From positions 42,972 through 106,971 of the forward strand of contig JAQVEZ010000003.1 of NCBI GenBank assembly GCA_028697455.1: 64,000 nucleotides of DNA, given 5' to 3'. The stretch comes from Minisyncoccota bacterium (lineage in GTDB: Bacteria > Patescibacteriota > Minisyncoccia > Phycocordibacterales > UBA1006). A program made the position numbers and the translations under genes. The first letter of the stretch is position 1, and every line of letters starts with the position of its first letter. Shown here piece after piece: positions 457 through 34,040 of the stretch. Under the pieces are notes generated by a model. It did not search any database, had not been told where the DNA came from, and saw only the letters and a list, made by a program, of their open reading frames with translations.

Positions 457-517
457 ATAATATACCCCACCAGTATATCATAGCCGTGGCAAAGTAAAAA
501 AATGGCTTGCGCCATTT

Positions 518-1129: not shown

Positions 1130-1164
1130 AGGGCTATCATAGCAAAAAATAATTTTTAGTAAAA

Positions 1165-3927
1165 TTACCGATAGCGACCCATAATATCACGCTCAACCTC
1201 TTCTCTTGGTTTCCCATATTTCAAAAAAGATATTTGTTTTATTTTTTCTGAAACTCCTTGTGGATTTTTTTGAACAAAATACTCAAGAGGGAGTGTTTGA
1301 ATATTAAAAGGAGCAAGTGGTTTCCCATTTCCAATCATCTGAATATAGGCATTTCGGTTGGGGATACGCATAATATCATCTGCAGAAAATTGCGGGAGAA
1401 AACGTTTTTCTACATACTGCGCATCCTCAAAAGAAATACGAAAAGAAGCCATAGACCCCACGTTACCAAAGACCGCGTTTTTGATTCCTTCATCAAGCTG
1501 AGCAATAAATTGGTGAGCAACAATAAGCCCGAGCCCATACTTTCGTGCCTCAGAGAGGATTTGTGAAATAGAATCGGTTGTCACATTCTGAAACTCGTCA
1601 ATATATAAATAAAATGGAGGAAGCTCCTTATCAAGCGAATCAACACGAGACAAGGCTGCCATCAAAATCTTTCCAACAAGGATAAGCCCGATCAGGTTTG
1701 CATTAATTTCTCCAAGTCGTCCTTTTGAAAGATTCACCAAGAGAATCTTTTTACTATCCATGATATCTCGAAAATTAAAGGATGATGTTTGTTGAGCAAT
1801 AATAGGACGCATGATCTCATTCGAAATCATTGGATCAAATTTTGAGGTAATATAAGGAACAAAGTTTTCAAGTCCCTGCTCTCCTGTTGTTTTTTCAGCA
1901 TTCTCCCAAAACTGTTTAATAATAGGGTTTTTACAATGTTGTAACTTTAAATCTCGGAAATTCTTATCCGCCAAGACTCTTCCAATCTCAAGAAGCGTGC
2001 TTCCTGACTCAAGGTGTTCCATAACAAGCCCTGCTGAGTTTCGAAAATACTGCTCAAACATAGCACCTCCTCCAACCTTCATATCAAAAAGCTTGTTAAA
2101 AATACCCATCATTTCGTTAATAACAAAAGACTTTTGCTCGGGGTAACGAGGATCAAATTCAAGCATATTTAATCCCATTGGTCTTTCGACAGATGAAGGG
2201 TCAAAATAAATAACATCATCAATTCTTTCAGGGGGGATAAAGTCCAAGATATCTTGAATATCAGAACCATGAGGATCGATAAAGCAAACCCCCTCTCCGT
2301 TCTTGATATCTTGAATAAGCATCTGTTTCAAGAGGTGAGTCTTTCCAGTCCCTGTCTGTCCAATCACATAAAAATGTCTCAAACGATCTTCAGGTGTCAT
2401 ATGAATCATCATTTCTCTATGACGAAAAACATTCTTCCCAAGAATAATACCTTCTTGTGGAGTATCAGAAGGAGCTGGTGCACTCTTATTACTTTCTTGT
2501 TTTAACTGAGAGGTCTCAGATATCTCAAGAGGAAAATGAAAAAGTGTAGAAAGCTCTTTGAGATTTAGTTTAAAAGTATATCGATCATTAAAAAAACGAA
2601 AAACAAAATCCTGAATTGATTGCTCGAGCTGAGAACCACGCTGTGTCTCAAAACGAATACCATTCCCTTTTGGATTATTAAACTGCTGAAAAGCCGAACT
2701 CAGGCTGTGGAGAATTTCATCCGAACGCTGTTTTGTTTCTGCAGAAGTAATAATACGAATATTTGTTTGAACGATAGTGCTATTAAGTTTTTCAGTGATT
2801 TCTCGGATAGCGTCTTCGTCAATTTTCTTTTCGGGAATGTCGGTTTTACTTTCTTCTTTTTGCTGAGAAAAAACATCTCCAACATTCTTTTTAAAATCAG
2901 AAATGAATGAGTTTTTCTTTGCTGCAACCTTAAGGGTGTCTCCCTTTTTGAGATTATCTAAAATCTCTCCATACTCTTTAATGTAATCACCATCAATAGG
3001 CATCACGATAAACTGCACAGCAGCCCCTTCTCCAGATTTTTTAAGCTTAGAAAAAGTATTCACCAAAACACTCATTGGGTCGTGGTCAAAGTTATCATAA
3101 GTTTTGAGCGTAAGAACATCATTCTGAGTATACTCAGCATAAGCAGATGAGCTTATTCCCGAATAGCTAAAAATATTATAATCATCAAAAACTTCAGTAA
3201 TTTTTACATCCTCAAAAAGCCCAAGGAGTTGTTTTTCAAAAAGATCTGCACGTGATTCAGGAACTGTTACATATAAAGACATGTCATCTTCTCCTTCGGG
3301 TAATGCAAGTTCAAGCGTGTAGTAATTCTTTTCTTTGTTCCGAGGATCACTCGCGATTGATTGCATCCCCGCCATAAACTGCTCCATAAGAGAGACAATC
3401 TGTTTGAAATCACGACTCTCTCCTGTTACTTTCTTGTTAGGAAGAATCACTTCAAAAATCCTCAACCCAAGTGATTTTGAAAGGTCTGATTTTGGTTTAA
3501 GGCCTGGAAGCTCATAATGAGACGCCAGATACTGAACAAGAAACCGATGAAAATCATCAAGGATATGATCATTCCCCATTTTTGAAACAATCTCAAGAGT
3601 ATTTTTGAGCCCTCGTTTAAGAAGAATTCCATAAAGATCTTCAATAATGGTATCGTGGTCTTCTGGAGAAAGTCTGAGCGTAATCCCTTCCATTTCAGAA
3701 TCTTCAACGCGGTATCCGTCTTCAAGAAGATCTTCTTGGGGTTGTTTTTTATATTGTTCGAGAAAATGCTCCGCAGCTTCTTCTCTTTTTTGTTCATATG
3801 GAATATTTTTCTTTTCGAGTGTTTGAAATTCTTTCTCTATTTCTTTTTGAACAAATTGAGTTTCTTCGGCAGAGTTCTTAAAACGTGGTTTTCGTTCAAG
3901 GTTGTCAAAAAAATCATGAGGATCCAT
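1165..3927 (-). CDS. VirD4/TraG/TraD-like (TrwB_AAD_bind / TraG-D_C family) P-loop ATPase with a long acidic/basic N-terminal region
   Basis: Walker A FYVIGQTGTGKTHLL and Walker B-like PFYLYIDEFQNV followed by ARKYGLGLIVAHQFIAQL resemble type IV coupling proteins. The start was moved to MDPHDFF (the ATG at 3925-3927) because a TATAAT box lies 6 nt upstream; the ORF caller's longer start at 3966 has no promoter support. Confidence 0.45.
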   Translation of the reverse strand: MDPHDFFDNLERKPRFKNSAEETQFVQKEIEKEFQTLEKKNIPYEQKREEAAEHFLEQYKKQPQEDLLEDGYRVEDSEMEGITLRLSPEDHDTIIEDLYGILLKRGLKNTLEIVSKMGNDHILDDFHRFLVQYLASHYELPGLKPKSDLSKSLGLRIFEVILPNKKVTGESRDFKQIVSLMEQFMAGMQSIASDPRNKEKNYYTLELALPEGEDDMSLYVTVPESRADLFEKQLLGLFEDVKITEVFDDYNIFSYSGISSSAYAEYTQNDVLTLKTYDNFDHDPMSVLVNTFSKLKKSGEGAAVQFIVMPIDGDYIKEYGEILDNLKKGDTLKVAAKKNSFISDFKKNVGDVFSQQKEESKTDIPEKKIDEDAIREITEKLNSTIVQTNIRIITSAETKQRSDEILHSLSSAFQQFNNPKGNGIRFETQRGSQLEQSIQDFVFRFFNDRYTFKLNLKELSTLFHFPLEISETSQLKQESNKSAPAPSDTPQEGIILGKNVFRHREMMIHMTPEDRLRHFYVIGQTGTGKTHLLKQMLIQDIKNGEGVCFIDPHGSDIQDILDFIPPERIDDVIYFDPSSVERPMGLNMLEFDPRYPEQKSFVINEMMGIFNKLFDMKVGGGAMFEQYFRNSAGLVMEHLESGSTLLEIGRVLADKNFRDLKLQHCKNPIIKQFWENAEKTTGEQGLENFVPYITSKFDPMISNEIMRPIIAQQTSSFNFRDIMDSKKILLVNLSKGRLGEINANLIGLILVGKILMAALSRVDSLDKELPPFYLYIDEFQNVTTDSISQILSEARKYGLGLIVAHQFIAQLDEGIKNAVFGNVGSMASFRISFEDAQYVEKRFLPQFSADDIMRIPNRNAYIQMIGNGKPLAPFNIQTLPLEYFVQKNPQGVSEKIKQISFLKYGKPREEVERDIMGRYR

Positions 3928-3984
3928 GATCTCATTATACGCTAAAAAATATAAATAAAAAAACACTCACAAACTGAGCATCTT

Positions 3985-4305
3985 TTATGCAAGACTGGTG
4001 ATCTTTACTTTCATAAAGTGCTGTCGATGCCCTTTCTTTTTAAAGTATCGTGTTTTTGATTTATATCGAATCACGGTTACTTTTTTAGAAAGTCCTTGTT
4101 CAACAAGTTCACCAGAAACTTTTGCTCCAGACAGGAATGGGGTTCCGATATTGGTTACTGAACCATCGTCAGTAAGCAATACGTTTTCAAAAACAATTTT
4201 ATCCCCTGTCTTGAAGTCTCCATCTAATTTTTCGATGGTGATAAGATCACCTTCGGAAACGCGGTATTGTTTCCCACCGGTTTCAATAATTGAAAACTTA
4301 CTCAT
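3985..4305 (-). CDS. rplU: 50S ribosomal protein L21
   Basis: MSKFSIIETGGKQYRVSEGDLITIEKL is the canonical bL21 N-terminus. The internal Met was chosen as the start because TTGTCA-16 bp-TATAAT lies 10 nt upstream. Confidence 0.9.
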   Translation of the reverse strand: MSKFSIIETGGKQYRVSEGDLITIEKLDGDFKTGDKIVFENVLLTDDGSVTNIGTPFLSGAKVSGELVEQGLSKKVTVIRYKSKTRYFKKKGHRQHFMKVKITSLA

Positions 4306-4344
4306 AACAAGGGCTATTATACATAAATAGCTTTTTATGACAAG

Positions 4345-4957: not shown

Positions 4958-4994
4958 ACTTCAAAAAACACCCCTACTCTGTTATACTTCCCTT

Positions 4995-6383
4995 ATGAAA
5001 CTCTATAATTCCCTAACGAATCAGAAAGAAACTTTTACCCCTCTAAGTGCTGGTAAGGTATCTATGTACCACTGTGGGCCAACGGTGTATGACTATGTCC
5101 ATATTGGGAATTTGCGATCATTTTTGCTCGCGGATTTTGTTCGTAGAGTTTTTGAATATCAGGGATATGCGGTAACTCAAGTCATGAATATCACCGACAT
5201 TGGACACCTCGTTTCTGATGGAGACGACGGTGACGACAAAATGACCAAAGCACTAAAACGAGAAGGTAAAGACATCACCCTAGAAAATATGCTCGCTCTG
5301 GCTGATTTTTATGCAAATGCTTTTAAGAATAACTTACAGGAACTCAACATTGAGACCCCGCATTTTATTCCCAAAGCTTCAGAACACATTGATGAGGATA
5401 TCAAGATTATCAAACAACTCGAAACAAAAGGATATACCTATATCACCAGTGACGGAGTGTATTTTGATACTGCCAAAATGGCCGATTACGGAAAACTTGG
5501 AGGAATTAATAATGGGAACAACGAAAACCGTATCGCCGAAAATACTGAGAAAAAACAATCAGCTGACTTTGCTTTGTGGAAGTTTGATAATAACCAGGGC
5601 TGGGACTCTCCTTGGGGACAAGGTTTCCCTGGATGGCACATAGAATGTTCTGGTATGGGAATTAAATACCTTGGAGAGCAATTTGATATTCATACTGGAG
5701 GAATTGACCTCAAGAGTATTCATCACAACAATGAAATTGCTCAATCAGAATCGGCTACTGGTTGCTCACCATTTGTATCTTATTGGTTGCATGGAGAAAT
5801 GCTCAATTTTAGAGGAGAAAAACTCTCTAAATCAACGGGTGGAAATATCACCCTTGCTGTTCTCAAGGATCAAGACTTCTCACCTCTTGACTATCGCTAT
5901 CTCACCCTTCAAACACATTACCGTTCTCCTATGGAGTTCAGCTTTGAAATTTTAGAACAAGCAAAGAACGCCCTTGCTCGTATCAAAAAAGACATTCTCA
6001 GGCTCAAAAAAGAAAATCCTGACACAAAAATAATCGATATAAAAAATCATTCTTACCAAAAAGAATTCCTAGAGAAAATCCAAGACGATATAAATATTCC
6101 TCAAGCACTTGCAGTTTTTCACGAAATGATGAAATCAGATATCTCTGATAACGAAAAATTATCTCTTGCTTATGATTTTGATCATATCTTTGGGCTTGGT
6201 CTTGAACAGCTCCACGAAGAGACCTTTGCTGTGCCAGACAGGGTCCATGAACTTCTCGATGAACGTGCAAACGCGCGTAAGAACAAAAATTGGGAACTCT
6301 CTGATACTCTTCGAGATGCTATCGTGCAAGAAGGCTACCGAGTCATCGATAGTGGTGATAAACAGGAAATTCAAAAACTTTAA
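4995..6383 (+). CDS. cysS: Cysteinyl-tRNA synthetase
   Basis: Carries the class I motifs HIGN (HIGH) and KLSKS (KMSKS) and the CysRS-typical CGPTVYDYVHIGN…WHIECS. TTATACT lies 7 nt upstream of the ATG. Confidence 0.9.
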   Translation: MKLYNSLTNQKETFTPLSAGKVSMYHCGPTVYDYVHIGNLRSFLLADFVRRVFEYQGYAVTQVMNITDIGHLVSDGDDGDDKMTKALKREGKDITLENMLALADFYANAFKNNLQELNIETPHFIPKASEHIDEDIKIIKQLETKGYTYITSDGVYFDTAKMADYGKLGGINNGNNENRIAENTEKKQSADFALWKFDNNQGWDSPWGQGFPGWHIECSGMGIKYLGEQFDIHTGGIDLKSIHHNNEIAQSESATGCSPFVSYWLHGEMLNFRGEKLSKSTGGNITLAVLKDQDFSPLDYRYLTLQTHYRSPMEFSFEILEQAKNALARIKKDILRLKKENPDTKIIDIKNHSYQKEFLEKIQDDINIPQALAVFHEMMKSDISDNEKLSLAYDFDHIFGLGLEQLHEETFAVPDRVHELLDERANARKNKNWELSDTLRDAIVQEGYRVIDSGDKQEIQKL

Positions 6384-6410: not shown

Positions 6411-6686
6411 TTAGAAAGTACGATCAAGATAATCATTAATATTCTTACTTGTTGTATCTATCTGAGACTGTATTGATGAAAAGAAGTTCTTAACTGAAGA
6501 ATTCATCTCAACAACAGCTGCCTGACTATCTGTAGGCAAATCATCAGCAATATCATCGAGGCCTTCTTCTCTTAATGTTTCTTCTGTCGTTGTTTGTTCA
6601 AGGGTAGTACTTTTTTGAAAGGCGCTGTACGCAAAATAAGCAAGGAGCGCAATGATAATAATAACGAAAAGGTTTTTCATACTCAT
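6411..6686 (-). CDS. small membrane-anchored or secreted hypothetical protein
   Basis: N-terminal hydrophobic segment FVIIIIALLAYFAYSAF. GGTATACT lies 8 nt upstream of the ATG. Confidence 0.45.
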   Translation of the reverse strand: MSMKNLFVIIIIALLAYFAYSAFQKSTTLEQTTTEETLREEGLDDIADDLPTDSQAAVVEMNSSVKNFFSSIQSQIDTTSKNINDYLDRTF

Positions 6687-6708
6687 CTAGTATACCTTAA
6701 AAAACAAA

Positions 6709-10342: not shown

Positions 10343-10474
10343 ATGTATATTTGGAAGATAGTTTTAGTATATACTCTTTCATTTTTTTGACAAGTTTTTC
10401 ATATATCTGAATTTATTGTCAAAAATACAAAAAAAGCCCTTGAAAAATCCTTAAAAAGGGCTATAGTTAAAACA

Positions 10475-11044
10475 ATGGACAAAAAAGGTAAAAACAGCAT
10501 ACAAGATACCCTTTTGCGGATTCTCTCTGGCAAAAAGGTTCTCCGTCACGAAACTCTTCTCGAACGAATGGAGCCTTTTTTATCCGAAAAAGATAGCTCG
10601 GAGCAAAAATATTCAATCAACCGAACGCTCAAAAAAATGATTGAAGACGACATCGTGGTCAGACACGAAAGCTCACGATCAGCGTTTTTCTCTCTCACCA
10701 AAAGAGGGAAACAAAAAATGAGAACAACCCTCTTCTCATCACAACAACACCTTGTTCCGACAGTATGGGATGGCTACTGGAGAATTGTCATTGTTGATAT
10801 TCCTGATCACAAAAAGAAAGAGCAAGATGCTCTCCGCTATCTTCTCAAAAAAGCGCAGTTTATTCAGATAAAAAATTCTCTATGGATTTCTCCCTACTCC
10901 CTTGAACATATTATGATAGAAATACGAAACGATATGGGACTCCATGATGAGATACTTATCTTTGTGACAAACAAACTCGATACTCACACAGAAAATATCC
11001 TTATCCAAAAATTCGCAGAAAAAGCAGAAAAAAAAGAAGGCTAG
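10475..11044 (+). CDS. winged-HTH transcriptional regulator with a PaaX-C/Cas2-like C-terminal domain. Candidate regulator of the divergent grpE-dnaK-dnaJ operon.
   Basis: The N-terminal region has an HTH-like LLRIL…, and the C-terminal WDGYWRIVIVDIPDHKKKEQDALRYLLKKAQFIQIKNSLWISP resembles the PaaX_C/Cas2-like fold. The gene is transcribed divergently from grpE. Confidence 0.35.
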   Translation: MDKKGKNSIQDTLLRILSGKKVLRHETLLERMEPFLSEKDSSEQKYSINRTLKKMIEDDIVVRHESSRSAFFSLTKRGKQKMRTTLFSSQQHLVPTVWDGYWRIVIVDIPDHKKKEQDALRYLLKKAQFIQIKNSLWISPYSLEHIMIEIRNDMGLHDEILIFVTNKLDTHTENILIQKFAEKAEKKEG

Positions 11045-11066: not shown

Positions 11067-11092
11067 CCAAAAAACACCTCTCGGTGTTTTTG
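11067..11092. terminator. bidirectional intrinsic terminator AAAAAACACCTCTCGGTGTTTTT, a member of a recurrent terminator family
   Basis: Hairpin flanked by A- and T-runs between convergent genes 10475-11044 (+) and 11109-12428 (-). Confidence 0.6.
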
Positions 11093-11108: not shown

Positions 11109-12428
11109 TTAATTCTCTTGTCCCTGCATTGCAGAAAGGAGTTGTTGATAGAGTCCCAAAAGTTCAGTATAGATATTTACCAAAGGATTGTTATTTATAA
11201 ATCCGTTTTGTGGTCTACAGAAAGTCGTTACTCCCGCTGAACAAAATCGGGTTCCGAAAATGCTTGAGGATTTTGAAGAAGTTGATGACTCTTCAGAGTT
11301 TTTAAAAATAAAGATAGATTGATTATAATAACTACCATTTGCATCCCCGAGAATGACAAACTGTCCATCTGCATAAATAATTTGGGAGGCGTTCATATAA
11401 TCACTTGTACCAAGAGTGGGGATAAGGTACTCCCACACTTCCCCTCCAAAGGAATAAGTGAGGACTTCGTTCCATTCACTGTCCTGCATATAACCAACCC
11501 CGATATAAAGACCGTCTCCATAGGTAATTGATCGTGGGGCAAAAGAAGCATCTCCTGAAACCATTTTTGCTATCCAGTCTGTCCCGTTTTTTGAAGTAAA
11601 AATTTGGTGATCACCTCCAATGATAAACTCCCCATTAAGATACTCCATTTGCCCTCTAAGATGACCTTCTAATCCCTCAATAGTATTAAACCCTGTTGTT
11701 TCATCAGGAATAAACCAATGGGCCCCTCCATCTTGAGAGAGAAGAGGTTCAAAAATAATCGGAGACATCATATCTTCCCGAGTCGAAAGAAGCGATATCA
11801 AAAGAACATCTCCATTTTGGTCATATCCTGCAGCAAGGTGCGAGGATACACCAAGAGGATTATCTTCTACCTCTCCTTTACTCCAGTGCACTCCATCATT
11901 TGAATAAATAATATAGGGTTCTTCTGTTCCTATCATCATATTTCTTTCAATCCCAACCGCCACAAATAATCCTCTGTCGTTAGAAGTATCATACACATAA
12001 GAAACCTTACTTAATTCTCCGTAAGTTTTTGTTATTTCTGGTAATGAGGTTTCAGAGGTATTTTGATCATAAGAATTCCAATTCTCCCCATCACTCGAGG
12101 TATAAACAAGAGGAAGATCATTTGAACGTTTTCCAACAGCAACAAACTTACCATCCCCATAACTAACCCATGACAGATTACCTATTATACCTGTACTTTC
12201 CCAGTTAACAGCATCAGAGGAATAAGCTATCTGACCTCCTCCAACGAGGACATACATTTCATCTCCATAAGCAATAGATGAAAAGGATGATGGCCAAGAA
12301 TCATCAGGAAAAATCAAAGATTCACTCCACTCAACAGGTTGAGCAGAAGCTGTGTGTGGATTAATAAAACTTGTAAAACCTACTATAACAAATAATGATA
12401 GTAGTGACATAAAGGTGTATTTTTTCAT
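11109..12428 (-). CDS. Secreted BNR/Asp-box repeat beta-propeller protein with a conserved two-cysteine C-terminal domain (paralog A)
   Basis: Signal peptide MKKYTFMSLLSLFVIVGF…ASA. Five or more S-x-D-G-x-x-W Asp-box motifs (YSSDAVNWES, TSSDGENWNS, YSNDGVHWSKG, LSQDGGAHWF, TSKNGTDWIAK) alternate with YGDGKFVAVG-type strands. The C-terminus SSIFGTRFCSAGVTTFCRPQNGFINNNPLVNIYTELLGLYQQLLSAMQGQEN is shared with the ORFs at 37368 and 56623. Confidence 0.7.
   Translation of the reverse strand: MKKYTFMSLLSLFVIVGFTSFINPHTASAQPVEWSESLIFPDDSWPSSFSSIAYGDEMYVLVGGGQIAYSSDAVNWESTGIIGNLSWVSYGDGKFVAVGKRSNDLPLVYTSSDGENWNSYDQNTSETSLPEITKTYGELSKVSYVYDTSNDRGLFVAVGIERNMMIGTEEPYIIYSNDGVHWSKGEVEDNPLGVSSHLAAGYDQNGDVLLISLLSTREDMMSPIIFEPLLSQDGGAHWFIPDETTGFNTIEGLEGHLRGQMEYLNGEFIIGGDHQIFTSKNGTDWIAKMVSGDASFAPRSITYGDGLYIGVGYMQDSEWNEVLTYSFGGEVWEYLIPTLGTSDYMNASQIIYADGQFVILGDANGSYYNQSIFIFKNSEESSTSSKSSSIFGTRFCSAGVTTFCRPQNGFINNNPLVNIYTELLGLYQQLLSAMQGQEN
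11122..11275. repeat. Copy 1 of a ~150-bp conserved 3'-end cassette (encodes the shared C-terminal domain) of the BNR paralogs
   Basis: CTGCATTGCAGAAAGGAGTTGTTGATAGAGTCCCAA…GTTCAGTATAGATA… is ~85-90% identical to 37386-37540 and 56637-56790, while the remainder of the genes has diverged. Confidence 0.7.
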
Positions 12429-12488
12429 ACTCTTCTAGTATACCAACCTTAGCTTTGAATGCAAAACAAAAAACACCTCTCGGTGTCT

Positions 12489-12890
12489 TTATCGTTTTGA
12501 CCACGCTGGTCGCTTTCGTGCCTTGCGGAGTCCTGGTTTCTTTCGCTCTTTACTTCGAGGATCTCGCTTGAGATATCCTGCTGATTTGAGGCTTGGGCGA
12601 AGCTCTTCGTTATATTTGGTAAGTGCTCGTGCAATACCATGGCGAATAGCATCTGCTTGTGCAGCGATTCCTCCTCCACGAACAATAATGCTTACCATAA
12701 AGTCATCTTTGGTCTCGACAGCGGTGAATGATGCTCGCACTACTTTTTGATGCTCTTCGATAGGAAAATACTCTTCAAGAGTTTTCTCGTTGATGATGTA
12801 GGTCATCTTGCTATCAGGAGTAATACGGACCTGGGCAATTGCATTTTTTCTTCTTCCTATTGCAGGAATATATTGTGTTGATTTAGCCAT
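12489..12890 (-). CDS. rpsI: 30S ribosomal protein S9
   Basis: Conserved C-terminal …GYLKRDPRSKERKKPGLRKARKRPAWSKR. Confidence 0.95.
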   Translation of the reverse strand: MAKSTQYIPAIGRRKNAIAQVRITPDSKMTYIINEKTLEEYFPIEEHQKVVRASFTAVETKDDFMVSIIVRGGGIAAQADAIRHGIARALTKYNEELRPSLKSAGYLKRDPRSKERKKPGLRKARKRPAWSKR

Positions 12891-12891
12891 A

Positions 12892-13254
12892 TTATTCTTT
12901 GATCGTGATGTTCTTCATCATAACTGCTCGTAATTTGTTATTAGGAAGCATTCCATAGATTGCTCTTTCAAAAATCTCCTTATATCCCAATCGTTCAATA
13001 AGTTTTTCTCGTGATTCAAATTTCAAACCTCCTGGATATCCAGAATATCGTTTGTATTCTTTTTCGAGTTGAGAATCATTGAGGAGTACCTTTGAGGCAT
13101 TCTCAATAACGACGTGAACCTCAGGTGCTTTATAAGGAACAAAACTTGGGTTGTTCTTTCCTCGTAAAATCATAGCAATTTCAGTTGCAAGTCTCCCGAG
13201 TTTTTTTCCTTCTGCGTCAATGATATATTCACTTTTTGTTTGATCTGTTGTCAT
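12892..13254 (-). CDS. rplM: 50S ribosomal protein L13
   Basis: MTTDQTKSEYIIDAEGKKLGRLATEIAMILRGK. The internal start was chosen because the longer ORF would overlap rplQ. Confidence 0.9.
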   Translation of the reverse strand: MTTDQTKSEYIIDAEGKKLGRLATEIAMILRGKNNPSFVPYKAPEVHVVIENASKVLLNDSQLEKEYKRYSGYPGGLKFESREKLIERLGYKEIFERAIYGMLPNNKLRAVMMKNITIKE

Positions 13255-13270
13255 ATCAAAATTTAAAAGG

Positions 13271-13624
13271 TTATACAAACTCAATAAGTGCCATAGGGCT
13301 CGCATCTCCCTTTCGATGAGGGAGCTTTACAATACGAAGATATCCTCCTTCCCGATTTTCATATCGTGGTGCAAGAGTGTCAACAAGCTTATTTGCAAGG
13401 TCTTCTTGGTTTCCAAGTCGTGCTCGAATAGTACGCCGAGAAGCAAGATCATTCTTTTTTGCTTGAGTAAGCAATTTTTCCGCAAAAGGACGTAGTTCTT
13501 TTGCACGCGCTTCTGTTGTGATAATATGCTCATGCGTAATTAAAGCAACAGCAAGCGAACGAATAAATCCTGTTCGCACCTTTCTGGTTCTTCCGAATTT
13601 TCTGTTTTTTCTTCCGTGTCTCAT
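13271..13624 (-). CDS. rplQ: 50S ribosomal protein L17
   Basis: MRHGRKNRKFGRTRKVRTG…. Confidence 0.92.
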   Translation of the reverse strand: MRHGRKNRKFGRTRKVRTGFIRSLAVALITHEHIITTEARAKELRPFAEKLLTQAKKNDLASRRTIRARLGNQEDLANKLVDTLAPRYENREGGYLRIVKLPHRKGDASPMALIEFV

Positions 13625-13632
13625 ATGTGTTT

Positions 13633-14652
13633 CTATTTATCTTCTTTCAGCTTTAATTTAAAGGTAGAAAGGGTCTCTTCAACTTCTTCAAGGCTCTTTT
13701 GTCCAAAACCTGGAAGATCGAGAAGATCTTCAGCGCTCTTTTGAACAAGCCCTCCGAGTGTTCGAATACTTGCTTCACCAAGCGCTCGTTCAGTCCTTGA
13801 GGAGAAATCGAGAGTATCAATTCTTGTTTTGAGAAGTTCTACACGTTCTTCTGGATCAAAATTCTCAACTTCAGCGTCTCCTTCTGCATCTTCCTCATGG
13901 TTCGCATGAACACGAACGATGTTTTCCTCTGGCTTCTCTACTGGGTCAAGTTCTTCTTCGGTTTTCATGTCAAGAATGCTCTTGATTTGCTTAATAATTA
14001 TCTTAAGAGAATCCTCAAGGGCTTCTTTTGCGCTAATACTTCCATCTGTTTCTAGATTAATTCGAAGGAGATTGTAGTCGGTTCTATCTCCAACACGCAT
14101 ATGCTCCACTTCATAATTTACTTTGCGAATTGGGCTAAAAATAGCATCGACGAGAATTGTTCCAACGGGAGGTTTTTCCATAAGAAAGTCTTCTTTTGAA
14201 ACAAAACCGATTCCTTTTGCGAGAGTTATTTCAATGTCAAGATCTGTTTTTTTATCGGTTATCTCTGCAATATATTGATCAGGAGTGGTAACCTCAACAC
14301 CTCCTACCTTATCAAAAAGAGAAGCAGTTACAATCCCAGGCCCCTTAACAGAAAGCTTAAGGTTTGTTTCGGTTTCAGAAGCCATTGAAAATCGAACTTT
14401 TTTCAGGTTGAGGATAATGGTAAGAACATCTTCTTTGATTCCATCAAGTGTGGCAAATTCATGATCCGCTCCTTTGATACGAAGAGAAGTTATAGATACC
14501 CCAGGAAGTGACGAGAGAATAATTCGTCTCAAGGCATTTCCGAGAGTATGTCCATATCCTGGATACAACCCCTCTATTTCATAAATTCCTCTTGTAGGAG
14601 TTTCTTCAATCACATTAAGTTTTTTTGGTAAAACAATATTTTGGTGGAACAT
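13633..14652 (-). CDS. rpoA: DNA-directed RNA polymerase alpha subunit
   Basis: GYGHTLGNALRRIILSSLPG and operon position between rpsD and rplQ. Confidence 0.93.
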   Translation of the reverse strand: MFHQNIVLPKKLNVIEETPTRGIYEIEGLYPGYGHTLGNALRRIILSSLPGVSITSLRIKGADHEFATLDGIKEDVLTIILNLKKVRFSMASETETNLKLSVKGPGIVTASLFDKVGGVEVTTPDQYIAEITDKKTDLDIEITLAKGIGFVSKEDFLMEKPPVGTILVDAIFSPIRKVNYEVEHMRVGDRTDYNLLRINLETDGSISAKEALEDSLKIIIKQIKSILDMKTEEELDPVEKPEENIVRVHANHEEDAEGDAEVENFDPEERVELLKTRIDTLDFSSRTERALGEASIRTLGGLVQKSAEDLLDLPGFGQKSLEEVEETLSTFKLKLKEDK

Positions 14653-14713
14653 ATATTATTAGTATTAATTCAAAATAATAAAAAGTTGGGACTCCTTTGT
14701 AACCTCTTAATAA

Positions 14714-15313
14714 CTAGCGACTATAGAACTCAATAACTGCTTGAAAATTAAAGAATGGTTCTGGATTTTTTGGTTCCCCCGTTACAGAAATTGATACTTT
14801 CTTTGCATCAACATCAATCCAAGCTGGTTTTTTAACTGACTCAAGTCTTTGTGATAAATCAAGAAAGACAGTCTTGTTTTTACTTCCCTCTCGAACAGTG
14901 ATAACATCTCCTTTTTTAAGAAGATGAGATGGAACATCTATTTTCTTTCCATTGAGGGTAATATGCCCGTGAGAAACAAGTTGTCGTGCAAAAGCTCGTG
15001 TGTTTGCAAAACCTGCTCTAAAAACAACGTTATCAAGACGGGATTCAATCTGTCTAAAAAGTTCGTCCGCTGGGTTTGCTGTTGTCATAGCCTTCGCAAC
15101 ATAACGACGAAACTGTTTTTCAGAAACTCCGTAGGCAAAACGAACTTGCTGTTTTTGAATAAGAGATACTCCATAATCAGTAGGACGTTTTGGTCGAGCA
15201 TTTCGAGCTTTTGACCGTTTTTGCTCAGAAAGAAGAAACTTTTGTGTTTGAGTTTTTTCATAAACCCCAGCACCCAATCTCCGTGCAATCTTATATTTTT
15301 TTATCTTTGCCAT
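14714..15313 (-). CDS. rpsD: 30S ribosomal protein S4
   Basis: MAKIKKYKIARRLGAG…S4 domain. Confidence 0.93.
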   Translation of the reverse strand: MAKIKKYKIARRLGAGVYEKTQTQKFLLSEQKRSKARNARPKRPTDYGVSLIQKQQVRFAYGVSEKQFRRYVAKAMTTANPADELFRQIESRLDNVVFRAGFANTRAFARQLVSHGHITLNGKKIDVPSHLLKKGDVITVREGSKNKTVFLDLSQRLESVKKPAWIDVDAKKVSISVTGEPKNPEPFFNFQAVIEFYSR

Positions 15314-15334
15314 AAATAATGATAGTTATAAAGA

Positions 15335-15769
15335 TTATACCCGTCGTGCCTTTGGGGCTCGTGGGCCATTAAATGGGATAGGAGTTTTATCTTGGATCCG
15401 AGTAATCTCAATCCCTTGTGAGACAAAACCTCTTACAACAGATTCTCGACCAGAACCAACACCTTTAATAACAACATCAACTTCTTTAACACCCATAAGT
15501 CCAGCCTTTTCTCCCAAGATTTCTCCTACTTTTGCTGCTGCAAAAGGGGTTCCTTTTTTAGCTCCCTTGAAACCAAGAGCTCCTGAAGAAGAGAACATGA
15601 GAGCATTTCCATCAAGGTCGGTAACCGTTGCTTTTGTGTTGTTGTATGTTGATTGAATGTGCAAAATAGCTTTTGCAACTTTCTTTTTAGGGATACGTGA
15701 TAATGCCCTTGATTTTAAATTCTTATCAAGAGTCTTCCCTTTTTGTTTAACAATTCTTTTCTTTCCCAT
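15335..15769 (-). CDS. rpsK: 30S ribosomal protein S11
   Basis: …IPFNGPRAPKARRV C-terminus. Confidence 0.93.
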   Translation of the reverse strand: MGKKRIVKQKGKTLDKNLKSRALSRIPKKKVAKAILHIQSTYNNTKATVTDLDGNALMFSSSGALGFKGAKKGTPFAAAKVGEILGEKAGLMGVKEVDVVIKGVGSGRESVVRGFVSQGIEITRIQDKTPIPFNGPRAPKARRV

Positions 15770-15774
15770 ATAAA

Positions 15775-16140
15775 TTATTTCTTACCTGAACCCATAGTAA
15801 CTCGTTTGTTTCCTCGTCGTGTTCGGCTGTTGGTTTTTGTTCTTTGCCCACGAGCGGGAAGATGGCGACTGTGTCTTCCTCCTCGATAAGAGTCAATGTC
15901 CATAAGTCTTTTAATATTTTGACTTACTGAACGTTTAAGATCCCCTTCAAGAGTAAGTGCTTCCACAACATCTCGAAGCTTTTTTTCTTCACTCTCTGAA
16001 AGATCTTTTGTTTTTTTAACAGGATCAACCCCTGCTTCTTTACAAAGAGCTTGGGCTCGAGAAAGACCAATCCCATGTAAAACAGTCATAGAATATTGTA
16101 TTTGTTTTCCGTCAGGAAGTGTTATTCCAAAAATTCTCAT
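15775..16140 (-). CDS. rpsM: 30S ribosomal protein S13
   Basis: MRIFGITLPDGKQIQYSMTVLHGIGLSRAQ…. Confidence 0.93.
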   Translation of the reverse strand: MRIFGITLPDGKQIQYSMTVLHGIGLSRAQALCKEAGVDPVKKTKDLSESEEKKLRDVVEALTLEGDLKRSVSQNIKRLMDIDSYRGGRHSRHLPARGQRTKTNSRTRRGNKRVTMGSGKK

Positions 16141-17899: not shown

Positions 17900-19079
17900 A
17901 GTCTGATTGAGAAAAAAGATCTTTTTGTTCTGAAATGTAATGAGCCAAGAGTTTCATTTCGATATCTTCTATCTCATTAAAAACATAAGGGAGAGCGTTT
18001 TCAAAAGAAATTAATTCAATTCTCCCGTTGGTAAGAAGGTGTTCTCCAAGCTCGTCATGAGAAAGGATCATTCTTTCAAACCACAAAGAAAGGGTGTCGT
18101 GTGTTTTAAGAACCAAGGTGTTAGGCAAAAGACCTTTTTTACTAAATTCATCGAGAGCATTATAAAAAGGTTTTAACCATGAGTGAAAAGCTTTTTCTGA
18201 ATCTTCCTCAAGAAGCTCTGCATAACTATCAGTAAAAGCTCTCTCGGTAAAAAGCTCAAGCGTATTTCGTGCTTCAAGCATTGAAAGTCCCATTCGAGAG
18301 GATAAATCCCTCAAAATAGTATGAACCCCAGAAGGAAAAACCCCGAAGTTACGGAGGTGATCGTTTTCAATAATAAGAATTTCAGTAAGCTCTGTTCCAA
18401 TGTCAAAAATTAAAGCATTATCGTTGTGAGGAAGGAGTGTTTTTACTCCATAATAAAAAACATAAGGATTAGAGAGAAAAATAGGGTCTCGGTGAAAATG
18501 TTTTTGAATAATCCCCTCAAAACTTTTCTTTGTTTTTCGAGACATCACAGAAACCAAAGAATGCACCTCAAATGTTCTCGCTATTGTCCCCAGAGGTTCT
18601 TTTACAGGATATCCATTAATATAATAATCCAGAACTTTTCGATCAATGAGCTCAACGTCATACTGATGATAGTTGAGATTTTTCTTTAAAGAAGTTTTGA
18701 GATCTTTTTGTTCTAGTTTTGCGAGAAGGTTTTCGTCAACAGTAAAAGCGTCTCCTTTTTTAGGTTGGTATTGGGTTATTCTTTTTTGGGAAGAAATCCA
18801 AGGGCTTCCTACGTTACAAAAAATACCCGAAATAGGAACGAGTGCGTGTAAATAAATTTCAGTAGCAAGAGCATCAAAAGTTTTTTGAGCTTTTTTCCAA
18901 AAGCGTTGATAATCGTATTGAGCTCCGTCAGAAATATCTTTTCGTAATGAGATAAACGAACGAACAAAATCAACCTCTCCTTTTTTGGTAAAGGAATACT
19001 CCAAAACGGACCCTCCAACACTTCCGCTGTCGATATCAAAAACAACAATATATTTTTTTTGAGGATTTTCCTTGTTCAT
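17883..19079 (-). CDS. FtsA/PilM-like actin-family (ASKHA) ATPase
   Basis: N-terminal YIVVFDIDSGSVGGSVLEY resembles phosphate-1, and ALIFDIGTELTEILIIENDHLRNFGVFPSGVHTI resembles the phosphate-2/adenosine motif of FtsA/PilM. The start was set at MNKEN (19079) because TGCTATACT lies 14 nt upstream; the ORF caller's start at 19127 would lie upstream of that promoter. Confidence 0.4.
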   Translation of the reverse strand: MNKENPQKKYIVVFDIDSGSVGGSVLEYSFTKKGEVDFVRSFISLRKDISDGAQYDYQRFWKKAQKTFDALATEIYLHALVPISGIFCNVGSPWISSQKRITQYQPKKGDAFTVDENLLAKLEQKDLKTSLKKNLNYHQYDVELIDRKVLDYYINGYPVKEPLGTIARTFEVHSLVSVMSRKTKKSFEGIIQKHFHRDPIFLSNPYVFYYGVKTLLPHNDNALIFDIGTELTEILIIENDHLRNFGVFPSGVHTILRDLSSRMGLSMLEARNTLELFTERAFTDSYAELLEEDSEKAFHSWLKPFYNALDEFSKKGLLPNTLVLKTHDTLSLWFERMILSHDELGEHLLTNGRIELISFENALPYVFNEIEDIEMKLLAHYISEQKDLFSQSDYDTFS

Positions 19080-19151
19080 ATCTTTGCTCTCACAGTATAG
19101 CACAAAAGAAGAAACGCTTTCAAACAAACAAAAACAAGCATTATGTGCTTG

Positions 19152-20966
19152 TTATTGCTGTAGCTCCATGCGCACACGGCGAACACCAGCTGAGGAGGCT
19201 TCTTCTTTTACTATGCGCATCTTCCCAAATGAGGCTATTTCAGAAAGCTTTTCAACATGAGGACCACCACACAACTCTCGAGAATAAATGATACCGTTCT
19301 GATCTTTCATTGTATAAACCTGAACATCATCTGGGTACTTCTCCCAAAAAGAACCGACAACACTTGGGTCATTTTGAGCATCGGCTTTTTTCATGTGGTC
19401 GATACTTACGGTAGCATTACTTTCAATAGCTTCTTGAACATAGTGCTCTACCTGATCAAGGATTTCTCGGCTAACTTTTTCTGGGTGTGTAAAGTCAAAA
19501 CGCGAACGCTCTTCGGTGATATTTGACCCTTTTTGATGAACACTCTCCCCCAAAAATTTTCGTAACCCTGCAAGCATAAGATGCGTTGCTGAATGGAGGG
19601 CTCTAATTTTAGGAGTGTCTTTTTCAAGTCCTCCTTTAAATTTTTTTTCAGCTCCCATACGAGAGATATCTTGATGAGCTTTTTTTTCTTTTTCATAAAC
19701 AAGAAGAGCGGCATCATCAATAATGAGCTCAAACTCTTTTGCAATTCTTTTTGTTATCGAAAGAGGAAGCCCATGGGTCTGCTCAAGATTAACAAGAAAA
19801 GATCCTTCAAGATGAGACCCTCCATCTTCTTTGAATTTCTTGAGAAGATTTTTTCCTTTTTCTACAAGTTTTTCTACCTTAAGCATCTCCCCCTCAAAAG
19901 AAGAAATAATATTATTCAAAAGCTCTTGTGAGAGATCCTTAAAATAAAGATCCTTGTACATATCTTTGACCAAAAGGACAAGCTCCTTTATTTCTTTGTG
20001 AGAGAATCCTATCTCCTTTGCAGAAAAATAAATTCTCCTCAAGATCCTTCTTAATACATACCCTCTTCCTGTATTTGAAATAAAAACCCCCTCTGAAGCT
20101 AAAAAAGTTGCTGATTTAATATGATCAGAAATAATACGAGCGTGGCGTTCGTTATAATGAAGAGCGTGCTCTTTCAAATAATTCATAAAAGGAAGATAGA
20201 GATCCGTTTCAAAAATATTTGAAACGCCCTGCATCACAGCACTAACTCGTTCAAGTCCTGAGCCGGTATCAACATTTTTTTGTGGAAGATTCCCTTTAAT
20301 ATGTCCGTCTTCCAATTGGAAAGTCATGAAGACGTCGTTCCAGATTTCAACAAGTTTCTGGTCTTCATCAGCTTGTTCAAAAGCCTCTGGACTCAAATCA
20401 CCAAGATTCCCGGTGAGGTCATAAAACATTTCGGTTGAAGGCCCTGCTGGAGAGTTTGGCCCTGCTGTCCACCAATTATCTTTTGAGTCTCGAAAATAAA
20501 TTCTCTTTTCTGGAATAAACTTTTTCCAAATTTCAACAGATTCAAGATCCCGAGGAACCTCTTCGTTTCCAGAGAATACGGTAATGTACAACCTTGCAGG
20601 ATCAAGTCCGAGCCCTTCGTCACTATCAGTAAGAAACTGGTATGACCAAGCGATAGCGTCTTCCTTAAAATAATCCCCCAAAGACCAGTTTCCCAACATC
20701 TCAAAAAAAGTTGCATGAGTATTGTCTCCTACCTCATCAAGGTCATTAGTACGAAGACACTTTTGAGAGCTTGCGAGTCTTTTTCCAAGTGGATGATCTT
20801 CTCCAAGGAGATACGGAATAAGTGGCTGCATTCCCGCAGTATTAAAAAGTGTTGCGTTCGTTGCGTGAGGGGCTTCTTCGGTAATCAAAGATGCTGAATC
20901 AATAACAACATGATTTCGTTTTTCAAAAAATGTTAAAAATCTTTTACGGATTTCATTGGACTTCAT
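19152..20966 (-). CDS. alaS: Alanyl-tRNA synthetase, short form: catalytic plus editing domains, lacking the C-terminal C-Ala domain
   Basis: …FFEMLGNWSLGDYFK… catalytic core and HSATHLMLAGL…CGGPHV editing motifs. TATACT lies 8 nt upstream of the MKSNEIR start. Confidence 0.88.
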   Translation of the reverse strand: MKSNEIRKRFLTFFEKRNHVVIDSASLITEEAPHATNATLFNTAGMQPLIPYLLGEDHPLGKRLASSQKCLRTNDLDEVGDNTHATFFEMLGNWSLGDYFKEDAIAWSYQFLTDSDEGLGLDPARLYITVFSGNEEVPRDLESVEIWKKFIPEKRIYFRDSKDNWWTAGPNSPAGPSTEMFYDLTGNLGDLSPEAFEQADEDQKLVEIWNDVFMTFQLEDGHIKGNLPQKNVDTGSGLERVSAVMQGVSNIFETDLYLPFMNYLKEHALHYNERHARIISDHIKSATFLASEGVFISNTGRGYVLRRILRRIYFSAKEIGFSHKEIKELVLLVKDMYKDLYFKDLSQELLNNIISSFEGEMLKVEKLVEKGKNLLKKFKEDGGSHLEGSFLVNLEQTHGLPLSITKRIAKEFELIIDDAALLVYEKEKKAHQDISRMGAEKKFKGGLEKDTPKIRALHSATHLMLAGLRKFLGESVHQKGSNITEERSRFDFTHPEKVSREILDQVEHYVQEAIESNATVSIDHMKKADAQNDPSVVGSFWEKYPDDVQVYTMKDQNGIIYSRELCGGPHVEKLSEIASFGKMRIVKEEASSAGVRRVRMELQQ

Positions 20967-21031
20967 ATCTTTGTAGTATAGATAATTGCTCAATTTGAGC
21001 AAGAATAAGTTTCTCCGAGAGGTTCTGCAAA

Positions 21032-21499
21032 CTATTTTTCAGGATTATTTTCTTTTTCTTCTTTGCTTAAAAAAAGTCGTTTTTCAATTCTAAAAAGAAA
21101 AGAATAAGCAAAAATAACCAAGATAGTAGTAAAGACAGCAATCCAATACAGACCAAAACCGGTCGCAGCTCCTATCCCCGCAGCAAGCCAAATCCCTGCT
21201 GCCGTATTAAGATTTTCAATATGATTATTTTTAAAAATAATCATTCCTGCTCCCAAAAACCCAATACCCGTAACAATCTGTGCGGTAACTCGTAATGGAT
21301 CAAAGTTAAAACCTACTGACCCCGCATACTGAGCAGCCACCACCTGAGAAACAATGACAAACAAAGCAGCTCCCAGAGAAACAAAACCAAAAACTCTAAT
21401 TCCTGTACTTTTTCCAGAATAGATTCTCTCAACACCAATAGATGCTCCCAAGATGAAAGCAATAAAAAGACTTAAAAAAAGATGTGCGTTACTTAACAT
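21032..21499 (-). CDS. MgtC/SapB family membrane protein
   Basis: GASIGVERIYSGKSTGIRVF…AAQIVTGIGFLGAGMIIF…NLNTAAGIWLAAGIGAATGFGLY matches the MgtC consensus. Confidence 0.75.
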   Translation of the reverse strand: MLSNAHLFLSLFIAFILGASIGVERIYSGKSTGIRVFGFVSLGAALFVIVSQVVAAQYAGSVGFNFDPLRVTAQIVTGIGFLGAGMIIFKNNHIENLNTAAGIWLAAGIGAATGFGLYWIAVFTTILVIFAYSFLFRIEKRLFLSKEEKENNPEK

Positions 21500-21547
21500 A
21501 ATACTTTCTATTATACGGCCTTAACAAGGGAATGCCAACAAGATCAA

Positions 21548-22639: not shown

Positions 22640-23065
22640 TTACTTAAAGAGGAGTTTCTTTACTTCCTCTAAAATATTCCTTCTCGCGGGAAGAAGGATG
22701 TTCTGTGCTTCTTGGTGGGTGACCCATCGGTAAGAATTTATTTCACTCCGCTGTAAAATAAGCTCAAAAGGATCTCTTACGATACCAACAAAATAGATAA
22801 CCTTCTTCAAGACTGAGGGACGAAATCGTCTATGAATAAAGTACTCTTCAGAGAAAGTTTCTTCAAAAAAATAATTACAGTCCAATTGAGTTTCTTCGTA
22901 AAGCTCTCTTTTTGCTGTTTCAAGAAGGGTTTCTTCTCCTTCCTGATGTCCTTTTGGAAAACCCCAATATCCTCCTTTTCCTCGAACAATGAGATATTGG
23001 AACTCTCCTTCAGGATTTTTATATAACGGTATCACCCCACACGATAATGATACTTTTTTTGACAT
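22640..23065 (-). CDS. NUDIX hydrolase
   Basis: Nudix box GFPKGHQEGEETLLETAKRELYEETQL. Confidence 0.8.
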   Translation of the reverse strand: MSKKVSLSCGVIPLYKNPEGEFQYLIVRGKGGYWGFPKGHQEGEETLLETAKRELYEETQLDCNYFFEETFSEEYFIHRRFRPSVLKKVIYFVGIVRDPFELILQRSEINSYRWVTHQEAQNILLPARRNILEEVKKLLFK

Positions 23066-23090
23066 GTAATTATCTTATCACAAAAAGAGA

Positions 23091-25865: not shown

Positions 25866-25930
25866 ATCTTTATAATATCACAAACAAAAATGAGCAAAAG
25901 AAAAAGCTCACCAAAGGTGAGCTCGTATCT

Positions 25931-26998: not shown

Positions 26999-27073
26999 AG
27001 CTTAATATTAAAAATAATTATAAAACAAATATAACATAAAGAGAAATATATAGCAACATTAAAATCTGCTTGT

Positions 27074-31815: not shown

Positions 31816-31870
31816 ATTGTTACTATACTCGTTTCTTTTCAAATGAAAAATAACGATTACACTTATAATA

Positions 31871-32560: not shown

Positions 32561-32611
32561 TAACTATCACAATAAAATATATTTATAAGATAAGTATACT
32601 GAAAATAATTT

Positions 32612-33508: not shown

Positions 33509-33559
33509 AACGAGAATTATACCACTAAAAAGAAAAAAGACTCAAGTCTTTTGTTTCTC

Positions 33560-33868: not shown

Positions 33869-34040
33869 AAAATAAAAGACAATACCACCCAGATGAGCCC
33901 ATTTCTATTGACTTTTAGAGGAAAGTGGTTAAACTTTAGTTTATATATGAGTGATGAGATTTCTTCTCATCCTTTTTACAAAGAGTAAAAACGCATATAT
34001 TTCTAATTACTTACATTATTGATTTAATTTTAAAAAAGTT

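Follow-up and report, generated by a model that had tools for sequence, protein, structure and literature searches.

The window analyzed here is a stretch of 64,000 nucleotides (nt) from a Paceibacteria (Parcubacteria, Candidate Phyla Radiation, CPR) genome. Its GC content is 37–40%, and it carries one tRNA gene. GyrB of the window is at most 77–79% identical to that of any one-genome-per-species GTDB contig. Among the best 80 relatives, nearly all are metagenome-assembled genomes of Patescibacteria (CPR), and the nearest are labelled Parcubacteria, Paceibacteria or Nomurabacteria. Several public sequencing runs contain contigs near-identical to the window, among them SRR30309652, SRR28106885, SRR22315504, and SRR21722015. 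Sixty-seven genes were scored. A hexamer resembling the −10 box of a sigma-70-type promoter lies just before many of their start codons, and this box is the subject of the present analysis. The original prediction had placed such a box, extended by TGn, 6–10 nt upstream of the ATG at about 20 genes without a Shine–Dalgarno (SD) motif, and had proposed that most genes first in their transcription unit are translated from leaderless mRNAs.

Boxes were scored with a weight matrix built from 24 seed sites, and the threshold was the 99th percentile of gene-interior ATGs. A strong TATA[AC]T-type box was found 6–12 nt 5′ of the ATG in 27 of the 67 genes, one of which is a false positive. Five further genes had weaker boxes at 6–7 nt (TGATAAGAT, TGATATTAT, TAATAT, TAGAAT, and TGGTAGGAT). 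The figure of about 20 genes was thus conservative. Around 40% of all genes in the window carry a box near the ATG, which is the majority of genes heading a transcription unit. The 13 sequences quoted in the original prediction were all found, once each, on the stated strand and ending in ATG. Two of its labels (6686 and 33868) are start positions given by the open reading frame (ORF) caller; the box adjoins ATGs at 6680 and 33850, respectively. The sites are listed below with the box and its spacer to the ATG (lengths of proteins in amino acids, aa).

1127–1144, minus strand: ndk; TGCTATGAT, 6 nt; Pfam NDK.
3925–3942, minus strand: DUF87/DUF8128/TrwB-like ATPase gene (originally called VirD4-like); TATAAT, 6 nt; an independent call gives the same 920-aa product.
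4303–4324, minus strand: rplU (L21); TATAAT, 10 nt; an independent call gives the same 106 aa.
4980–4997, plus strand: cysS; TGTTATACT, 6 nt; the N-terminus matches residues 1–2 of E. coli CysRS.
6678–6697, minus strand: gene of an 89-aa membrane protein, ATG 6680; AGGTATACT, 8 nt; AGG in place of TGn.
10459–10477, plus strand: gene of a PaaX_M-like protein; TATAGT, 7 nt.
12426–12445, minus strand: paralog A, gene of a 439-aa secreted protein; TGGTATACT, 8-nt spacer agaagagt; the ATG is 12428–12426, and 12429–12445 is the reverse complement of TGGTATACT-agaagagt; terminator hairpin 12490–12469 ends 41 nt before the ATG.
20964–20983, minus strand: alaS, ATG 20966; TATACT, 8 nt; Pfam match from residue 5.
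21497–21518, minus strand: MgtC-family gene; TATAAT, 10 nt.
23063–23080, minus strand: NUDIX gene; weaker box TGATAAGAT, 6 nt, under the matrix threshold.
25863–25880, minus strand: gene of a 411-aa protein; weaker box TGATATTAT, 6 nt, score 4.8; terminator 25924–25904.
26996–27013, minus strand: gene of a Sigma70_r4/HARE-HTH protein; weaker box TAATAT, 6 nt.
31813–31830, minus strand: uvrB, ATG 31815; TATAGT, 6 nt.
32592–32614, plus strand: rpmA (L27); TATACT, 11 nt; box inside the palindrome AGTATACT.
33506–33524, minus strand: gene of a 194-aa secreted protein; TGGTATAAT, 7 nt.
33848–33867, minus strand: gene of a 96-aa membrane protein, ATG 33850; TGGTATACT, 8 nt.
35721–35744, minus strand: SLOG/LOG-like gene; TGGTATACT, 12 nt; predicted leader about 6 nt.
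37135–37156, minus strand: RNase J-like beta-CASP gene, ATG 37137; TGTTATACT, 10 nt; terminator 37196–37184.
38607–38646, minus strand: gene of a 413-aa Kelch/DUF6242-like protein; TTGACT (−35), 17-nt spacer with G9, TATAAT, 8 nt.
40735–40756, minus strand: gyrB; TGGTATAAT, 10 nt.
40791–40811, plus strand: ung; TGCTACACT, 9 nt; box at 6–7 nt in orthologues.
42181–42199, minus strand: methyltransferase gene; weaker box TAGAAT, 7 nt; orthologues in related loci L001 and L003 have TGCTATAGT at 6 nt.
44378–44395, minus strand: NAD_binding_1 oxidoreductase gene; TATAGT, 6 nt; terminator 44452–44424.
45530–45549, minus strand: gene of a 180-aa secreted protein; TGCTATACT, 8 nt; promoter near-identical to that at 12445.
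47142–47159, plus strand: gene of a 108-aa protein, ATG 47157; TATAAT, 6 nt.
50852–50873, plus strand: Bro-N gene within an integrated element; TATAAT, 10 nt.
56557–56575, minus strand: truB, ATG 56559; TATAAT, 7 nt; terminator stem 56605–56586 ends 27 nt before the ATG.
57844–57864, minus strand: gene of a 407-aa BNR-like protein; TGATACAAT, 9 nt; TTGACT and a G10 run upstream.
59574–59592, minus strand: NusB/NUDIX gene; TGTTATACT, 7 nt; box at 7–9 nt in orthologues.
59820–59841, minus strand: rpmF (L32), ATG 59822; TATACT, 10 nt; terminator 59885–59866.
61236–61253, minus strand: rnhB; weaker box TGGTAGGAT, 6 nt.

The distance between box and ATG was not random. A strong box lay within 55 nt of the start in 36 of the 67 genes. 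Their spacers were 6 nt (six boxes), 7 nt (four), 8 nt (seven), 9 nt (two), and 10 nt (six), and the remaining spacers (11, 12, 14, 15, 16, 20, 22, 23, 32, 41, and 52 nt) occurred once each. Spacers of 6–10 nt accounted for 25 of the 36 strong boxes, whereas about 4 were expected (binomial p = 5 × 10⁻¹⁸). Box–ATG pairs were also counted across the window and compared with 100 dinucleotide shuffles. TATA[AC]T stood 6, 7, 8, and 10 nt before an ATG 4, 8, 8, and 7 times, respectively, against approximately 1.0 ± 1.0 in the shuffles (z = 3.3–6.9), so the predicted enrichment over shuffled controls was borne out within the window. The generic pattern TANNNT had no spacing peak before ATG relative to the shuffles, and the signal was carried by TATAAT-like hexamers only. 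Of 14 ATGs at spacer 6, 12 opened an ORF of at least 80 aa, as did 10 of the 14 ATGs at spacer 8, compared with 21% of ATGs in general. In a test that needs no start choice, an ORF was counted if its 5′ zone held any ATG with a box at 6–10 nt. Such a pair was found in 41% of ORFs, in 2.4% of gene-interior zones, and in 0% in 49 kb of E. coli DNA. These ORF-anchored tests replaced a crude per-locus ratio of peak to background, which was too noisy.

The onset of the spacing distribution was sharp at exactly 6 nt, in the window as well as in three tiers of relatives. In the closest relatives, 12 sites had spacer 6, and no shorter spacer had more than 2. For rpsM (16089) and rpsD (15313), the matrix picked boxes at spacer 5; both were discarded, since ATGs further upstream agree better with the Pfam coverage and the operon context. 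Across 49 species, the modal transcription start is 7 bp after the −10 box (PMC12641261). The onset at 6 nt fits this value, because the A of the ATG is then the seventh base after the hexamer.

The consensus of the box was t-G-G/n-TATA[AC]T-a. The TGn extension was present in 15 of 30 boxes, compared with 7.6% before any TANNNT (p = 8 × 10⁻¹⁰). G was favoured at −13 (16 of 30 boxes), and the fifth base of the hexamer was C as often as A. Strict TGnTA[TC]A[ACG]T sites numbered 23 in the window, and 14 of them were located 6–16 nt 5′ of the ATG of a gene. The extended form is thus common among the boxes, but it does not describe all of them: alaS, uvrB, the VirD4-like gene, 47157, and rpmF lack TGn, and the gene at 6680 has AGG. 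The start codon beside the box was ATG in all 27 cases. Scans for a bipartite −35/−10 consensus did not exceed the shuffles (54 vs 46 ± 6, 52 vs 48 ± 7, and 65 vs 55 ± 8), and TTGACT was present at a few sites only. Therefore, the promoter is essentially a lone −10 box, and a −35 element is no general feature.

Whether the box behaves as a promoter or as a ribosome signal can be read from its place in operons. Genes with a same-strand neighbour ending no more than 12 nt before them were classed as operon-internal (n = 13). They start between 35 nt inside the preceding gene and 12 nt after it. The box was found at none of these 13 starts and at 27 of the 54–55 other genes (p = 9 × 10⁻⁴). Presence at first genes and absence at internal ones is the GeneMarkS-2 criterion that separates a promoter from a ribosome-binding site (PMC6028130). 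The ribosomal protein operon is an example.

12489–16140, minus strand: rpsM-rpsK-rpsD-rpoA-rplQ-rplM-rpsI operon; internal starts have no −10 box at 6–12 nt and no SD motif.

Terminators pointed in the same direction. Terminator-like hairpins were about twice as frequent in the window as in shuffles, and they were found 27–54 nt upstream of the ATGs at 456, 12428, 19079, 25865, 37137, 44380, 56559, and 59822. With terminators so near the ATGs, the promoter must fit between the two, and no space is left for a leader. One bidirectional terminator hairpin, AAAACACC-TCTC-GGTGTTTT, occurs three times, at 11070–11091, 12469–12490, and 56586–56605.

The box also precedes two untranslated RNAs. It is 7 nt from the P1 helix of a SAM-I riboswitch and 9 nt from the mature end of tRNA-Asn, and both distances fit a start about 7 bp downstream of the box; these start positions are predicted. 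The riboswitch (RF00162) scored 40.2 bits, just under the gathering score of 44.4, with a local E value of 4 × 10⁻⁸, and a 108-aa ORF and metK lie 3′ of it. The terminator hairpin of the riboswitch, AAAGUAUA...UAUACUUU followed by a U-run, has its end at ATG 46906, where it mimics a −10 box. The tRNA-Asn gene (54710–54775, minus strand) has its own terminator-then-promoter module, and the implied 5′ leader for RNase P removal is about 3 nt.

46937–47069, minus strand: SAM-I riboswitch unit, a leadered control; TGCTATACT at 47069–47061, 7 nt, aptamer 47053–46937.
46904–46923, minus strand: false positive, ATG 46906; TATACT, 8 nt, which is the 3′ arm of the riboswitch terminator hairpin.
54710–54749, minus strand: tRNA-Asn, a control; TTTGCA, 18 nt, TGaTATATT; the box ends 9 nt before the mature 5′ end.

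SD motifs were not enriched. GGAG or GAGG was found at −16 to −4 of 8% of the starts in the window and at 15% of gene-interior positions, in agreement with the predicted lack of SD motifs. The same test in E. coli gave 47% of starts vs 1.6% in interiors, with the −10 box at 0%. Before operon-internal starts in the window, GGAG/GAGG occurred in 0 of 15 cases; E. coli starts gave 47–56%. Since no gene class had SD enrichment, a dual model in which the other genes rely on SD sites does not hold here. Upstream of the operon-internal starts, the sequence is A-rich and G-poor, and positions −16 to −2 are strongly depleted of G. T occupies −1 of these starts in 66–73% of cases across Patescibacteria groups (the window and related loci L001–L080), compared with 22% in E. 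coli. The A-rich, G-depleted region together with T at −1 may form an SD-independent start context. Unit-first and internal starts share only A-richness, G-poverty, and T at −1. We had considered T at −1 as a sign of a pyrimidine–purine transcription start and rejected it, because internal starts share the T (10 of 13). According to Tsurumaki et al. (2022, PMC9297842), about half of Parcubacteria lack the anti-SD motif. No rRNA was found in the window or in any of 86 related loci, where the 3′ end of 16S rRNA was sought.

Several of the start codons beside boxes agreed with protein homology. The uvrB ATG, residue 42 of the longest ORF, aligns to residues 1–5 of solved UvrB chains. The alaS ATG aligns to residues 1–3 of solved AlaRS chains, that of cysS falls on residue 2 in the alignment with E. 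coli CysRS, and the gyrB ATG is where homology to solved GyrB chains begins. The starts originally chosen for these four genes therefore match the N-termini of solved homologues. For truB, a PDB search returned no match. Independent gene calls on public contigs concur for ndk, cysS, rplU, rnhB, nusB, and the 920-aa ATPase. For L32, however, the public call is 98 aa long instead of the likely 68 aa, and for the gene at 6680 it is 91 aa instead of 89 aa.

The same arrangement was found in relatives. In the five closest loci (gyrB 76–79% identical), 66% of ORFs had a box at 6–10 nt, against 4.6% in the gene-interior control. The corresponding values were 20% and 2.2% for other Paceibacteria and 13% and 3.6% for more distant Patescibacteria, so the share of ORFs with a box declines with distance from the window. 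The geometry is kept in orthologues of rpmF, nusB, ung, dnaE, rnhB, and the methyltransferase gene, with the box at 6–10 nt and diverged spacer sequences. The rpmF box lies at 7–10 nt in seven genomes, and six orthologues have TATACT or TATAGT. Orthologue spacers are 7–9 nt for nusB, 6–9 nt for ung, and 6–7 nt for the methyltransferase gene. For dnaE, the box is at 6 nt in five relatives and at 16 nt in the window.

Taken together, these results suggested that most transcription units here are driven by a lone −10 promoter abutting the start codon, and that their mRNAs would start at or near the ATG and be translated without a leader. We give this reading a probability of roughly 75%. What we observed is the motif with its spacing, its confinement to unit-first genes, the enrichment of TGn, the depletion of SD motifs, and the conservation in relatives; from these we infer where transcripts begin and how ribosomes load, and the word leaderless is used in that sense. 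RNA polymerase would start about 7 bp after the −10 hexamer, which is on the A of the ATG at spacer 6 or 1–6 nt before it at spacers 7–12. A ribosome-binding site would not fit into such mRNAs, and the sequence contains none. The ribosome would bind the 5′-terminal AUG directly through the leaderless pathway. Because operon-internal genes have neither a box nor an SD motif, they need an SD-independent route, which could be translational coupling or re-initiation, or entry on unstructured A/U-rich RNA. Spacers of 6–11 nt correspond to predicted leaders of 0–5 nt (26 sites), and a spacer of exactly 6 was found in 6 sites only. At spacers 7–8, the polymerase may start on the A or leave a leader of 1–2 nt. 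Leaders of 0–5 nt are treated as leaderless in D. deserti, with a limit of roughly 5 nt (PMC4007540).

Several observations weigh against this reading. At 10 of the 27 sites, about a third, spacers of 9–12 nt correspond to predicted leaders of 3–6 nt, which are at or beyond the roughly 5-nt limit for leaderless translation. The gyrB orthologues have spacers of 9–33 nt, and the geometry is not fixed at every gene. The ATGs at 6680, 33850, 56559, 37137, and 59822 were picked by the box, and the count is partly circular; despite this, the start-free test still gave 41% vs 2.4%. The promoter pairs 12445/45549 and 38626/57864 are near-duplicates belonging to paralogous secreted proteins and are not independent. 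ATG 46906, which the original prediction did not quote, was rejected as a leaderless start, since its TATACT is an arm of the riboswitch terminator. Some genes first in their unit are clearly leadered, namely the SAM-riboswitch/metK unit, infC, grpE (spacer 23), and the gene at 44840 (spacer 52). Sites with longer spacers are given below.

454–480, minus strand: short leader, gene of an SMC_N-like ATPase; TGATATACT, 15 nt; terminator 519–498.
19077–19102, minus strand: short leader, gene of an FtsA-like protein, ATG 19079; TGCTATACT, 14 nt.
61297–61324, plus strand: short leader, dnaE; TGTTATACT, 16 nt; box at 6 nt in five orthologues.
44838–44901, minus strand: leadered exception, 120-aa gene (44840); TGCTATACT 52 nt before the ATG.

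The infC (IF3) region (33908–34043, plus strand) has an apparent TTG start at 34041 and a TTGACT-16-TAAACT promoter upstream. Two elements lie in its leader, a mini-ORF of 13 codons (33947) and a terminator-like hairpin (33953–33971). The leader of the infC-rpmI-rplT operon looks like an attenuator-type leader.

The boxes might be real promoters that are mostly secondary or internal, with genes expressed chiefly from longer polycistronic transcripts and leaderless mRNAs in the minority. Many genes follow a same-strand neighbour by 28–90 nt, some of these gaps have no recognisable terminator, and for gyrB another strong box is found at 40821, about 65 nt upstream of the first. However, terminator-like hairpins with T-runs lie directly upstream of at least nine boxes, and the divergent genes (rplU, ung/gyrB, rnhB/dnaE, and 47157) share the box although no read-through from a neighbour is possible there. 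We consider this explanation unlikely. A less probable one is that TATA[AC]T acts in RNA, as an SD-independent A/U-rich signal recruiting ribosomes to mRNAs begun further upstream, similar to GeneMarkS-2 group B. A genome without SD motifs needs another signal, and a distance of 6–10 nt to the ATG resembles that of an SD motif. The box is nevertheless missing from all 13 operon-internal starts, where a ribosome signal would be needed most. It also stands before an untranslated riboswitch and a tRNA, its cut-off at spacer 6 is predicted by the geometry of transcription start, and the terminators leave no space for an upstream start. The TGn extension is DNA-specific, its TG at −15/−14 being contacted in the DNA.

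A chance or compositional artefact was also tested. TATAAT-like hexamers are common in AT-rich intergenic DNA, and ATGs could have been selected after them. The absence of a spacing peak for TANNNT, the bipartite scan that did not rise above shuffles, and the one hit (46906) that is demonstrably something else would all suit such an artefact. It was not supported, since the boxes cluster at 6–10 nt instead of spreading across the gaps (p = 5 × 10⁻¹⁸), the controls gave 2.4% in gene interiors and 0% in E. coli, and the geometry is conserved in orthologues. We regard it as very improbable. A promoter that starts transcription at or a few bases before the ATG accounts for the absence at internal starts (0 of 13), the limit at spacer 6, the TGn extension, and the position of the terminators, and these sequence-level tests agree with the original prediction of a sigma-70-type, often extended −10 promoter.

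Some other features of the window concern promoters or nearby loci. A strong orphan promoter, TGCTATACT at 37344–37336 (minus strand), is followed by about 155 nt without an ORF and then by the terminator CCTTCTTTGGAGG plus T7. The region 37176–37344, which precedes the RNase J-like gene, may encode a small RNA or form a leader, and it had no credible Rfam match. In the palindrome AGTATACT (32593–32600), TATACT can be read in either direction. It separates two divergent genes, rpmA (spacer 11) and a 132-aa ORF (spacer 32), and may be a bidirectional −10 box that they share. G runs of 9 and 10 lie between TTGACT and the −10 box at 38618–38646 and 57856–57885 (minus strand), before the genes of paralogous secreted Kelch/BNR-like proteins. 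A homopolymer tract in the −35/−10 spacer is the classic layout of a phase-variable promoter. Look-ups for tract-length variants of these two paralogues returned none on record. In L085, a near-identical strain contig, genes of RadC, HTH, and Gp49-like proteins replace the BNR-like paralogue (window 56623–57846), and the locus is therefore variable in gene content between strains. The block 47900–54710 (about 30–36% GC, inverted GC skew) abuts tRNA-Asn and is probably a mobile element that has integrated, or what remains of a prophage. Its genes code for a Bro-N protein, an N6/N4 DNA methylase, endonuclease VII, and a large serine recombinase. The 355-aa protein encoded at 25931–26998 (minus strand) is unusual, with an N-terminal Sigma70 region 4 and, near its C-terminus, a HARE-HTH domain as in RNA polymerase delta.

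A wider claim can be put forward tentatively. Patescibacteria, and the Paceibacteria clade most of all, may follow a regime without SD pairing, in which about three quarters of the units are leaderless or have leaders of up to 5 nt and internal genes start through A-rich, G-poor, T(−1) contexts or re-initiation. We judge its chances to be slightly below even. If it is true, the share of leaderless and short-leader units would be the highest known in Bacteria and comparable to that of haloarchaea, and a major bacterial lineage with reduced ribosomes would load them directly on a 5′-terminal AUG as the rule, not the exception. The leaderless reading of the window by itself extends leaderless-dominated expression to a low-GC phylum with ultra-small genomes and gives the anti-SD loss reported for Parcubacteria a counterpart in the architecture of mRNAs. 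It also bears on the argument for ancestral leaderless initiation and on how reduced ribosomes find start codons. In practice, gene callers that rely on SD motifs misplace starts in these genomes, as in the public calls for L32 and the gene at 6680, and a box-to-ATG rule is a cheap correction for thousands of CPR metagenome-assembled genomes. A minimal Patescibacteria expression cassette would consist of TGnTATACT, 6–8 nt, and ATG, without a ribosome-binding site.

Leaderless genes with a −10 box at such a distance are already known. What appears new here is the phylum, together with the absence of SD sites in the rest of the genome. Among the papers covered by the literature search, none tied leaderless architecture to CPR, Patescibacteria, Parcubacteria, or Saccharibacteria. 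In E. coli and Gram-positive bacteria, extended −10 promoters (TGnTATAAT) can do without a −35 element. Similar to these, the promoters in the window have TG one base upstream of a near-consensus hexamer and a weak or absent −35 element. A difference is that G is favoured at −13 and the fifth base is C as often as A.

The closest known leaderless systems are the TA-led genes of Actinobacteria and Deinococcus-Thermus, GeneMarkS-2 group C (PMC3160421, PMC6028130, PMC4007540, PMC4633059). As in the window, their −10 box lies 6–8 nt before first-in-operon starts and is absent at internal ones, and transcription, by prediction in the case of the window, starts at or within about 5 nt of the AUG. 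With about 40% of genes in the window and 66% in the closest relatives, the share of genes with a box equals or exceeds the highest figures published so far, which are an average of 39% of genes for Deinococcus-Thermus and 60% of mRNAs for D. deserti. Group C genomes are GC-rich and have a degenerate TAnnnT box, whereas the window has 38% GC and a near-consensus TATA[AC]T, often with TGn. The remaining genes of group C use SD motifs, and the window has no SD signal in any gene class. GUG starts are common in leaderless genes of group C, whereas those in the window are all ATG. Unlike in group C, spacers of 8–10 nt are as common as those of 6–7 nt.

With the Bacteroidota of group B, the window shares the absence of SD enrichment in every gene class and the A-rich, G-poor upstream sequence (PMC6028130). 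However, group B has leadered mRNAs and a single non-SD motif at first and internal genes alike, whereas the motif in the window is restricted to unit-first genes and has promoter features. Archaeal group D (Haloferax, Halobacterium, and Sulfolobus) resembles the window, as read here, in that most units are leaderless and SD motifs play a minor role (PMC6028130, PMC4007540). Its promoter is a TATA box about 22–26 nt upstream, recognised by TBP/TFB, whereas that of the window is a sigma-70-type −10 box at 6–10 nt. The Parcubacteria subgroup of Tsurumaki et al. belongs to the same phylum-level lineage, and its loss of the anti-SD motif predicts an absence of SD pairing, as observed in the window (PMC9297842). 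That study dealt with rRNA and ribosomal proteins, not with the 5′ architecture of mRNAs, and it did not mention leaderless genes.

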